Shown in pieces: positions 27,762 through 31,947 of a stretch of 39,870 nucleotides of DNA (position 1 is its first letter; each line of letters starts with the position of its first letter). The position numbers and the translations under genes were made by a program. Below the pieces are notes generated by a model. It searched no databases, had not been told where the DNA came from, and was given only the letters and a program-made list of their open reading frames with translations. The DNA is from Squalus acanthias (lineage: Eukaryota): the NCBI GenBank assembly GCA_030390025.1, contig JASTWF010000365.1, positions 434,001 to 473,870 on the forward strand, read 5' to 3'.

Positions 27762-28112
27762 CTAGGACCGTCAAGTTGGTGGCGGCCTCCTGGTTGCCCT
27801 CGGGGTATATGGCGAACTCGCAGCTGTAAATCCCGTCGTCGTCCATCTGCAGTCTCTCGATGATCAGCGTGGCGTCCTTCATGGAGACCTCACGGAAGTG
27901 GATGCGCCCCCCGGTGTCGGTGGGGTAATTGGTGCCATGGTCTGGGTTGTAGACGGCCAGGTTGACCTTGGCTCCCGAGGGGTCCTTGATCCAGGTGACC
28001 TGCGTGACCGTGAGCGTCTGAGCGGGGTCCACGAACTGGCAACGGAGGGCAGCCTGACTCCCCACGTAGCCGGACACTTTGGGCTCCACCTTCACGTGTT
28101 GGGCATTGCACA
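27762..28112 (-). CDS. Nectin/PVR-like IgV exon, copy V2 (membrane-proximal third Ig domain)
   Basis: Acceptor ctgcag|TG, donor CTAG|gtacgt, 351 nt, phase 1-1, open. By manual alignment it differs from V1 at 6 nt and from V3 at 9 nt. Confidence 0.88.
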
Positions 28113-28163
28113 CTGCAGGAGGAGGGAGGGGGAAAAAGACAGCGTTAGCGTGAACCACTTGAT

Positions 28164-28742
28164 GAAGAACACAAGAATTCGGAGCAGGAGTAGGCCATAC
28201 GGCCTCTCGAACCTGCGCAGCGTTCAATAAGATCATGGCTGATCTTCTGCCTCATCTCCACTTTCCTGCACTATCCCCAAAGCCCTTGATTCCCTTAATA
28301 TCCAAATATCTATCGATCTCTGTCTTGAATATACTCAACGACTGAGCCTCCACAGCCCTCTGGGGTAGAGAATTCCAAAGATTCACCACCCTCTGAGAGA
28401 AGAAATTTCTTCTCATCTCAGTCCTGAATGGCCTACCATTTATCCTGAGGCTGTGGCCCCTGGTTCTAGACTCCCCAGCCAAGGGAAACATTCTCCCAGC
28501 ATCCACCCTATCAAGCCCTGCAATAATTGTGTGCGCTTCAATGAGATCCCCTCTCATTCTTCTGAATTCAAGAGAATACAGGCCTAGTTTACTCAATCTC
28601 TTCTCATACGACAGTCCCGCCATCCCAGGAATCAATCTCATGAACCTTCGTTGCACTCCCTCTATGGCAAGTATATCCTTCCTTAGGTAAGGAGACCAAA
28701 ATTGTACACAATACTCCAGGTGTGGTCTCACCAGGGCCCTTT
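28164..28742 (-). mobile_element. CR1 LINE 3' fragment (ORF2 C-terminus plus 3' UTR)
   Basis: ORF 28252-28731 reads RPHLEYCVQFWSPYLRKDI...RRMRGDLIE...TRGHSLRI...FFSQRVVNLWNSLP, the classic vertebrate CR1 ORF2 end. Confidence 0.92.
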
Positions 28743-29109
28743 ATAATTGGAGTAAGACCAGTGAGCGAGTGGTCAATCTATGGAACGGACTCCCCAGGGA
28801 GCCACTTCTCAAAACAAAAATGAAGTAAGGATTTCTTTCATAAATAGTACTGCGGGATATATTGGAGTTAATTTGAGACATGACGTGTGGTGAGTGTAGC
28901 GTACTCGGGAGGAGCAGGGGTCTTTGGACCTCTGGTTCCCAAAGCTCTCCAACCACTGGGGGTTTTCCTTGCCTTGTGTCTGGATCTGTTGGAGATTCAT
29001 TGATGGAGATTGATCGCTGTGATTGGTCAACTACTCCATTATGGTCGTGTCGTGTGACGACCAGGAGGGTCGAAGGTGAACTAGAAGGATCCTTGGTCTT
29101 TTAGCGTTC

Positions 29110-29362
29110 AGCAGCAACAACTTGCATTTATATAGAACCTTATAAATCAGACAAAATTTGACAGCGAGCCACATGAGGAGATATTAGGACAGGCAAGCAA
29201 AAGCTTGGTCAAAGAGGTCGGTTTTAAGGAGCGTCTTAAAAGGAGGAGAGAGAGGCGGAGAGGTTTAGGAAGGAATTTCAGAGCTTAGGACCCAGGCGGC
29301 TGAAGGCACGGCCGCCAATGGTGGAGCGAAGGGAATGGGAGATGGACAAGAGGCCAGAGCTG
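29110..29362 (-). mobile_element. L2-type LINE 3' fragment (duplicate of 405-660)
   Basis: Near-identical to 405-660. Confidence 0.7.
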
Positions 29363-29397
29363 TGCCTATTCCTACATTGCCATTATCGAATACTTAC

Positions 29398-29691
29398 ATT
29401 GCACAGACAGTGTGATCGGAATAGACTCTGGCCGATCCAGCGACTCATGGGTCACCACACAAGTGATGGTCTCCCCGTCGATCTCCCCGCTGGGGACCGC
29501 ACTGAAATGGCTCTCCACGGTGATGGTTCCATCGCTGTTCTTGGTCTGGGTCGTGTTGACATGTCCCGCAACGTCCCCCTTCCAGATGATAGAAGATGCC
29601 GGCTTCCCATTGGCCGAGGTGCAGACGGCCACGGGAACTTCAGTGGGCCCAGCCTTTTCCAGTAGCGGGCTGGCCGAATTTACAGGCTTGA
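29398..29691 (-). CDS. Nectin/PVR-like IgC2 exon (VKPVNSASP...AVCTSANGKPASSIIW...TCVVTHESLDRPESIPITLSVQ)
   Basis: Acceptor tcttgcag|TC, donor CAAT|gtaagt, 294 nt, phase 1-1, open, two canonical cysteines. Confidence 0.9.
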
Positions 29692-29878
29692 CTGCAAGAC
29701 AGAAGATAAAATGGTCACGCGAGTCAAGATGGGATGATCAGCCGTCATCTCAGTGAACGGCCGAACAGGCTCGAGGGGCTGAATGGCCTCCTCCAGTTCC
29801 TGCGACCATATCACATGGATCAACTCTGCTCTCTGGTTCATTCAACAGACTCTACCAGCCGTCCTTGTTCTCTGGGAT

Positions 29879-30230
29879 ACGGTGGTGTAGGGGTTATTTT
29901 ACTGGACTAGTAATCCAGAGGCCTGGGACGAATAATCCAGAGAACGAGAGTTCAAATCCCACCGCCATTGCAGTTTGAGAATTTTGAATTGAGTTTAAAA
30001 AAAGCAAACTTGGAAATAGGTGACAATGAAGCGGTCAGATTGTTGTAATAACCCAACTGGTTCACTAACGTTCATTTAGGGAAGGAAACCTGTCGTCCTT
30101 ACACAGTCTGGGCCTATGTGTGACTCTAGACCCAGTCTTAACTGCCCCATGAAGAGGCCGAACAAGCCACTCAGTAGTTCAGTGGTTCAAAAAGGCGGCC
30201 CAACACCACTAGGGCAACTAGGGGAATAAA
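29879..30230 (+). mobile_element. tRNA-derived SINE (duplicate of 1177-1526)
   Basis: Near-identical to 1177-1526. Confidence 0.6.
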
Positions 30231-30552
30231 TCTTCGGCAGCACCTCCCAAACCCGCGACCTCTACCACCTAGAAGGACAAGGGCAGCAGGCGCATGGGAA
30301 CACCACCACCTCCAAGTTCCCCTCCAAGTCAAACACACCATCCTGACTTGGAGATATATCGGCCGTTCCTTCATCGTCGCTGGGTCAAAATCCTGGAACT
30401 CCCTCCCTAACAGCACTGTGGGAGCACCTTCACCACACGGACTGCAGCGGTTCAAGAAGGCGGCTCACCATCACCTTCTCGAGGGGCAACTAGGGATGGG
30501 CAATAAATGCCGGCCTTGCCAGCGACGCTCACATCACATAAACAAAAAAAAA
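30231..30552 (+). mobile_element. Non-LTR retrotransposon 3' end, inverted relative to 30926-31540
   Basis: Homologous to 1527-1835, with an A-rich tail at 30539-30552. Confidence 0.75.
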
Positions 30553-30925
30553 GGACGACCCCTACCAACCCACCCTAGCCTATCGGCCGGGATGAAGCTG
30601 GTCACTGTCCCAGAAGGAGTTTTGCCCGTCAGCCTGCGAATCCTTCCACAAAAACAACGCAATGGCCACCCCGCCAGACTGCGACTCGTTCTCCGACTTT
30701 CCCCGCTGTTCTCCCAAGGGAAGGGTGTAAAGGTAGGAAGCCAAGTGGCTTTTGTCGATGCTGCCAACCAATGGTTTCGGGGCTAAAAGCAGTAACCTGT
30801 CTGTAGTGGGGCTCGAATCCCAGAACCTCCTGACTCCGCCCTCCGGCTTCGGAACAATCTTGGGATCTTCCTGGCCTGTGTGGCTTAGTTACGACACCGT
30901 GTTCGGGGGAGAGCATCCTTGAGTG

Positions 30926-31540
30926 TTTTTAATTCATTCCGGGGATGTGGGCGTCGCTGGCAAGGCCAGCATTTATTGGCCATCCCTAGTTGCCCTCGAG
31001 AAGGTGATGGTGAGCCGCCTTCTTGAACCGCTGCAGTCAGTGTGGTGAAGGTGCTCCCACAGTGCTGTTAGGGAGGGAGTTCCAGGATTTTGACCCAGCG
31101 ACGATGAAGGATCGGCGATATACTTCTAAGTCAAGATGGTGTGTGACTTGGAGGTGGTGGTGTTCCCATGCGCCTGCTGCCCTTGTCCTTCTAGGTGGTA
31201 GAGGTCACAGGTTTGGGAGGTGCTACCGAAGAAGCCTTGGCGAGTTGCTGCAGTGCATGTTGTTGATGGTACACACTGCAGCCACGGTGCGCCGGTGGTG
31301 GAGGGAGTGAATGTTTAAGGTGGTGGATGGTGTGCCAATCAAGCGGGCTGCTTTGCCCTGGATGGTGTCGAGCTTCTTGAGTGTTGTTGGAGCTGCACTC
31401 ATCCAGGCAAGTGGAGAGTATTCCATCACACTCCTGACTTGTGCCTTGTAGATGGTGGAAAGGCTTTGGGGAGTCAGGAGGTGAGACACTCGCCCCAGAA
31501 TCCCCAGCCTCTGACCTGCTCTTGTTGCCACAGTATTTAC
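30926..31540 (-). mobile_element. 5'-truncated non-LTR retrotransposon, same family as 2208-2838
   Basis: Encodes LSTIYKAQVRSVMEYSPLAW...AARLI. Confidence 0.8.
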
Positions 31541-31596
31541 GGCGGGAGGGAGCGTTTTTAAAGGGCTCACCTTGGCCCAATAGTCCACAGACGTAC

Positions 31597-31947
31597 CTAG
31601 GACCGTCAAGTTGGTGGCGGCCTCCTGGTTGCCCTCAGGGTATATGGCGAACTCGCAGCTGTAAATCCCGTCGTCGTCCATCTGCAGTCTCTCGATGATC
31701 AGCGTGGCGTCCTTCATGGAGACCTCACGGAAGTGGATGCGCCCCCCGGTGTCGGTGGGGTAATTGGTGCCAAAGTTCGGGTTGTAGACGGCCAGGATGA
31801 CCTTGGCTCCCGAGGGGTCCTTGATCCAGGTGACCTGCGTGACCGTGAGCGTCTGAGCGGGGTCCACGAACTGGCAACGGAGGGCAGCCTGACTCCCCAC
31901 GTAGCCGGACACTTTGGGCTCCACCTTCACGTGTTGGGCATTGCACA
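31597..31947 (-). CDS. Nectin/PVR-like IgV exon, copy V1 (N-terminal domain; ...KVILAVYNPNFGTNYP...CEFAIYPEG...)
   Basis: Acceptor ctgcag|TG, donor CTAG|gtacgt, 351 nt, phase 1-1. Joins exon 1 in frame to give ...HILA-V-CNA/QHVKV. Confidence 0.92.

Follow-up and report, generated by a model that had tools for sequence, protein, structure and literature searches.

Lock-segment variation in a nectin-2-like gene of Squalus acanthias with a young V-C exon duplication

The window analysed here, 39,870 nucleotides (nt) of Squalus acanthias DNA (GCA_030390025.1, contig JASTWF010000365.1, positions 434,001 to 473,870), lies at the end of scaffold C2944 in a genome of 3.7 Gb and carries part of a gene which is likely, from its sequence, the shark nectin-2-like (pvrl2l) orthologue. 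It holds three immunoglobulin V (IgV) exons, V1, V2 and V0, all with open reading frames and intact splice sites (a CAG acceptor and a GT donor at both V1 and V2) and all with the AX6G lock, in the form A-VYNP(N/D)(F/H)-G; lock AX6G and key T(F/Y)P are used as defined in PMC10486284 (this and the other papers are cited from excerpts of their text). An earlier note on this DNA had taken V1 and V2 for paralogous domains. They are, with V0, exons or alleles of one gene and not separate paralogues, and the note had overlooked both V0 and the T-to-I change that V1 and V2 have in common in the key. The exons, the lock segment and the V1/V2 differences (codons and residues given as V1/V2) are as follows.

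31597..31947, minus strand: V1, IgV exon, 351 nt; lock I-LAVYNP-NF-G; key I-Y-P
31769..31798, minus strand: V1 lock segment, nectin-1 77-86 equivalents, with five of the six V1/V2 differences
27762..28112, minus strand: V2, IgV exon, 351 nt; lock N-LAVYNP-DH-G; key I-Y-P
3581..3931, minus strand: V0, third IgV exon; lock N-LAVYNP-DH-G; canonical T-Y-P key
31797, minus strand: V1/V2 difference, ATC/AAC, I/N
31778, minus strand: V1/V2 difference, CCG/CCA, silent
31777, minus strand: V1/V2 difference, AAC/GAC, N/D
31774 and 31773, minus strand: V1/V2 difference, TTT/CAT, F/H
31637, minus strand: V1/V2 difference, CCT/CCC, silent

Exon comparison confirms that V1 and V2 differ at six of 351 nt (1.7%), five of them within 25 nt, a clustering with a chance of p=0.0004 under uniform scatter (p=0.012 for three residues falling within 9 of 116). 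In an ungapped alignment with human nectin-1 the replacements I/N, N/D and F/H correspond to N77, S84 and M85. All three lie inside or just before the A-X6-G motif, which bears out the view that every V1/V2 amino-acid difference sits at the lock, except that the N77-equivalent site, two residues before the A, flanks the motif. In a model of V2 built on the orthologue alignment (predicted local distance difference test, pLDDT, 91; only 35 for a single-sequence fold) residue 50 is on the C' strand and residues 56-58 are in the turn before C'', the strands being named as is usual for IgV domains. The closest solved V domain is that of nectin-1, with a template modelling score of 0.88 to murine nectin-1 D1 (5b21_A; Foldseek, E 3e-14). 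The alignment also upholds the assignment of the lock to the face used by ligands and viruses, as N77 (29-42 contacts) and M85 (20-33 contacts) are main contact residues of nectin-1 for alphaherpesvirus gD, which binds their alanine mutants more weakly, T128 being a minor contact (PMC5453625).

Evidence from reads consists of contigs from seven of the 24 listed sequencing runs (X1, X5, X6, X7, X8, X11 and X14), X1 being a DNA run and the RNA status of X6, X7, X8, X11 and X14 a guess. An X1 contig spans the whole V1 exon with V1 lock and key and a 3' flank of the V0/V2 type, and has three other letters in the compared stretch, none of them in the lock. As the whole V1 lock is carried by a DNA run, it is probably not a consensus error, which the earlier note had named as a possible refutation. 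Run X5 has the V1 letter at 31773; X1 and X5 come from different studies, at most one of which is likely to be the source of the assembly. Over 27762-28073 of V2, an X6 contig has one other letter. The use of X5 contig depth as copy number was rejected, since these depths carry no copy-number meaning.

Further V copies and alleles were obtained in the form of V0 and of a third lock type in the reads. The three types are N-PDH (X6, X8, X11, X14 and the major X7 contig), I-PNF (V1 and X1) and N-LNY (a minor X7 contig). The minor X7 contig departs from V1 at three of 126 nt, and each of the three is a replacement within the lock. Its N-Y state is an intermediate, which argues against one multi-base mutation. 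No V1-type lock was seen in the contigs of X6, X7, X8, X11 and X14, a result not used as evidence since contigs show presence, not absence. The key varies as well: V0 has T-Y-P and V1 and V2 have I-Y-P, retaining the aromatic residue and the P, and the T is found in all 18 orthologue proteins aligned (of 21 found). Both forms of the key, I and T, are present in organism A (within X8) and likewise in organism B (X6 versus X14).

The 21 relatives found, at 69-79% identity, have 462-501 amino acids (aa), the orthologues from sharks and rays being V-C-C nectins of about 470 aa; 19 of them carry names, all from sharks and rays, as nectin-1-like, nectin-2-like or 'PVR cell adhesion molecule related 2 like'. 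Extra domains are present in none of the 21, which is weak evidence of absence. Orthologues align by tblastn in the order leader exon, V1, C1, V2, V0, C0 and then, beyond the window, a second C domain and the transmembrane (TM)/tail sets, and this mapping onto a single leader and a shared gene body makes V1 and V2 exons of one gene. V0-C0-C2-TM corresponds to a V-C-C ectodomain plus TM (tblastn of orthologues; Pfam V-set and C2-set_2), an architecture supported by spliced contigs of 1139 and 1151 nt in X11 and X14. Second IgC exons and two alternative TM/cytoplasmic tail exon sets lie left of the window, at about 2.5, 5, 20 and 46-51 kb (tblastn). Because these two sets serve one ectodomain, as in human nectin-2, where alpha and delta have a common ectodomain and different TM and tail (PMC2194180), orthology to nectin-2/pvrl2l is likely. 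A V-domain tree (29 rows, human nectins left out, bootstrap not settled, long branches) places V0, V1 and V2 together (92/84) among the orthologues; no placement of the paralogues on contig C339 was obtained from it. In tilapia, flot1, tcf19 and major histocompatibility complex (MHC) genes lie near pvrl2l, which is a named candidate in a quantitative trait locus for tilapia lake virus resistance near MHC genes, a lead only (PMC12774591). Here, a scan of 107 candidate frames from C2944 turned up no neighbouring host gene, the matches to MHC class I and Band_7 lie on other contigs, and Flot had no match. A separate search for homologues of near length yielded no candidates.

The remaining features of the locus are these.

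36922..36979, minus strand: leader (signal peptide) exon, coding part, the only one found for the gene; 84% to orthologue P0003 (tblastn); GT donor
29398..29691, minus strand: C1, duplicated first IgC exon, phase 1-1; 5 nt and 3 aa from C0
28213..28262, no strand: approximate site of the crossover behind the V-C duplication, within a shared repeat (three-way alignment)
26768..26906, no strand: crossover interval in a copy (26403-27045) of a repeat like a long interspersed nuclear element (LINE), from this gene to the contig C339 nectin-like gene
26178..26297, minus strand: foreign transmembrane exon (TM'), in frame with V2; splice to V2 putative
25230..25879, no strand: N run (in the genome copy, 500 N from here)
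4110..25229, no strand: 17-bp satellite array, grown from a unit present once in the V1 upstream intron
694..987, minus strand: C0, first IgC exon of the canonical gene body

The upstream intron of V2 is of the V1 upstream type to about 28220 and of the C0 downstream type beyond. In the LINE-like copy there is a single switch over 26768-26906, from 32 informative sites of one type to 44 of the other, and the sequence beyond the switch is 97% identical to C339 nectin-like genes, the TM' region being 98-99% identical to two of these. Both junctions look like unequal crossover in repeats, as far as sequence can tell, and an assembly mis-join would look the same. The unique flanking introns differ by 1.6-1.8% between units, and the V-C cassette duplication appears recent and is probably polymorphic. 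All three codon differences between C1 and C0 are replacements, at 29681-29683 with the entire codon changed (GTA/AAT), and the C exon of X7 blends C1 and C0 letters. The 17-bp satellite, about 21 kb long, apparently lies inside intron 1, and 33-bp satellite arrays in opposite orientations flank the leader exon (33200-34100 and 37490-39870), the scaffold ending in the second. The round 500-N length suggests a scaffold gap, though it is indistinguishable from a mask. V0 has a leader-type upstream intron, as V1 has, and the 500-N run separates the satellite from the V1-C1-V2-TM' block; for these reasons V0 is slightly favoured to be allelic to V1, representing the second haplotype beyond what is probably a scaffold gap.

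The leader-to-V junction is found in the RNA-type runs X7, X8 and X14, and a V0-like exon is spliced to C in X11 and X14, each of which gives an unbranched single-V contig. In two of the three RNA-type runs compared at V1 (X7 and X8) an in-frame C-to-V junction occurs beside leader-V and V-C, in X7 with a depth of 11 against 44.6 for leader-V. Phase 1 exons and this junction are consistent with an in-frame V-C-V tandem like that of 4Ig B7-H3, and the junction supports the V-C duplication from outside the assembly. Among the loose ends in X7, X8 and X14 there was no V2-to-TM' splice; in X6 a V contig ends exactly at the exon 3' end and a TM' contig at the exon 5' end, which fits either a V2-TM' splice or intron retention.

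In the pooled set of the three genomic copies and the read contigs, with the lock taken as codons 50-59 (10 of 116), five of 11 replacement sites fall in the lock (p=0.0014), or four of 10 by residue (p=0.008). Three changes fall on residues (N50, P56 and T101) that all 18 aligned orthologue proteins have in common. All three are in the lock or key, among the nine of 49 invariant columns that lie there (p=0.005, post hoc). Replacements outside lock and key are conservative, except for K/E at a variable site, and the M85-equivalent differs in all four intact C339 paralogue pairs, a fifth being excluded because one member has a broken 5' half. Outside the lock, V1 and V2 differ at one of 326 nt versus about 5.5 expected (p=0.026), a deficit that either purifying selection or conversion can explain. 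The non-conservative changes lie mostly on the partner- and virus-binding face of mammalian nectins, a likely sign of selection for altered binding, though relaxed constraint on a spare copy could also account for it.

The locus is a real, polymorphic, partly duplicated nectin. The explanation put forward, to which an even chance is given, is that of a nectin-2-like gene with a young V-C duplication via repeats and a varying V exon, whose lock segment is likely under diversifying selection from ligands or viruses. In it, the V-C exon pair was copied, likely by unequal crossover between repeat copies, and the duplication would relax the need for a canonical lock and key in the extra domain. The C'-C'' segment would then gather point changes stepwise, and recombination or conversion would shuffle lock, key and flank types, so that the V1/V2 pair can appear identical except at the lock. 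The membrane-distal V1 may thereby be altered in partner or virus binding. An extended version, held to be improbable, is that copy number and sequence of nectin-2 are both polymorphic, some haplotypes encoding a chimeric V-C-V receptor on a TM exon captured from the neighbouring nectin-like immune cluster; its outer domain, with rewritten lock and key, would act towards a virus or a DNAM-1/TIGIT-like receptor as a decoy or an escape variant, and balancing selection would maintain the lock types, which would be shuffled in the manner of MHC segments.

Several observations weigh against such selection. The lock window was picked out by the V1/V2 pair itself, and replacement sites outside this pair fall in the lock in one of seven cases (p=0.47); the even scatter over further copies that the earlier note had named as refuting its idea is therefore seen in part, in the new sites and not in the pooled ones. 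V1/V2 exon divergence equals that of the introns, and V2 differs from V0 by 9 nt and four residues, none in the lock, so that the notion of domains homogenised except at the lock is weak. Replacement and silent sites stand at 5:1 in the lock versus 6:7 elsewhere (Fisher p=0.15), with one of eight silent sites in the lock, and p rises to 0.048 once two adjacent doublets of the V1/V2 cluster count as single events. Two of the clustered changes, CCG to CCA and CCG to CTG, are transitions of the CpG type, orthologues vary at positions 57 and 58 in any case (the F of V1 is in 3 of 18), S84 and P83 are not among the gD contacts in the text searched (PMC5453625), and in the C339 paralogue pairs most replacements are outside the lock. 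As to the reads, N-LNY is a single contig of depth 10.4 in a run guessed to be RNA, X7 and X8 belong to one study and back-splicing could yield an identical C-to-V junction, and contigs do not keep phase, so a patchwork of site combinations is only suggested. Selection for different ligands or pathogen escape, as proposed earlier, is inferred.

These points bear on relaxed constraint with mutational clustering, a possible though less favoured account in which a recent, near-neutral duplication left a spare V drifting in a tolerant, CpG-bearing loop, the cluster being real and unselected. The matching exon and intron divergence, the new sites without enrichment, the two CpG-type changes and the doublet-corrected p all agree with it, and the lost invariant N50 and T101 fit a decay of adhesion function. 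However, all three invariant-residue hits are on the lock/key face instead of being spread over the 49 invariant columns, every V exon has kept its frame and splice sites, and replacements beyond lock and key are conservative but for the K/E. Between diversifying selection on the binding face and relaxed constraint the chances are about even. An origin of the V1 lock in a single neutral gene-conversion tract, copied from a diverged paralogue, would account for a short dense block of differences, at a locus which has exchanged DNA with the C339 nectin-like cluster, but a pattern search of the whole assembly (up to two mismatches) finds no donor, matching only V1 and V0, the V1 codons are absent from all nine paralogue lock segments compared, and the X7 intermediate points to stepwise change; this account is already largely refuted and very unlikely. 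Equally slight is the probability that the V1/V2 differences or the duplication itself are assembly errors, given the full V1 lock in X1, the V1 letter in X5 from another study, the C-to-V junction in two RNA-type samples, and differences of 2-4%, which exceed consensus error. A weaker form, in which the letters are real, the order of three V exons is a two-haplotype scaffold (V0 an allele of V1) and V2-TM' is a mis-join in a repeat, is compatible with the diversifying-selection account. Assembly effects are favoured by the position of the V1-C1-V2-TM' block between the 500-N run and the scaffold end, the leader-type intron common to V0 and V1, the single-V contigs of X11 and X14, the continuation of the V 3' end in X7 and X8 only into the C exon and not into TM', and a 100% identical V duplicate elsewhere in the assembly.

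Elsewhere in the genome, contig C339 (68644-340200; L019, L022, L023, L025-L028) has at least seven clustered nectin-like V exons, one of them with the key I-I-F-P and another broken in its 5' half. Replacements abound in the closer pairs, e.g. 14 amino-acid versus two silent codon differences for L025/L027, and this cluster is a better site than the window for a positive-selection test. On C30 (L029, L033-L039) there are 29 matches to the TM' region, a large family of TM-exon relatives at 69-80% identity, accompanied by one or more IgV exons of another type; this is probably a cluster of Ig-superfamily receptors that has expanded. C22 carries a pair of nectin-1-like V exons (62040900 and 62046420; L020, L021), separated by 5.5 kb and within 3339 bp of 100% identical sequence, which are either a very recent duplication or a false duplication in the assembly. 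On C2944, pol frames resembling a long terminal repeat (LTR) retroelement or provirus, with protease, reverse transcriptase, RNase H and integrase Pfam matches, are found at about 175-179 kb (L065:1413-4994) and 304-308 kb (L052), and long tandem arrays in L057-L064.

Among known systems, nectin-2 (CD112) and teleost pvrl2l resemble the shark gene in the V-C-C ectodomain, AX6G lock, T(F/Y)P key and two alternative TM/tail forms (PMC10486284, PMC2194180), whereas the shark gene has an extra V-C cassette, the key T changed to I in V1 and V2, a polymorphic lock and possibly a foreign TM exon. In 4Ig B7-H3 (CD276) an IgV-IgC exon pair is likewise duplicated in tandem within one gene, reportedly altering binding and function (PMC3172298), but this is another family and is spread across many mammals, unlike the recent shark duplication (about 2% divergence), which is probably still polymorphic. 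PVR/CD155, which branched off from nectin-2 and evolves fast, binds viruses and immune receptors, the other nectins being described as highly conserved (PMC7286890). It is a whole-gene duplicate of placental mammals, in contrast to the shark locus, where only exons are duplicated. A search of the literature outside most subscription journals brought up no report of a duplicated V-C pair or a polymorphic lock in a shark nectin.

If relaxed constraint is the true explanation, the locus would be an ordinary young exon duplication in repeat-rich DNA. If the lock segment is under diversifying selection, lock variants within a species at the N77 and M85 equivalents, together with a transcribed V-C duplication, would amount to an independent replay in cartilaginous fish of the path from nectin-2 to PVR, and would offer natural variants for studying how the lock-and-key face trades adhesion against virus and immune-receptor binding.

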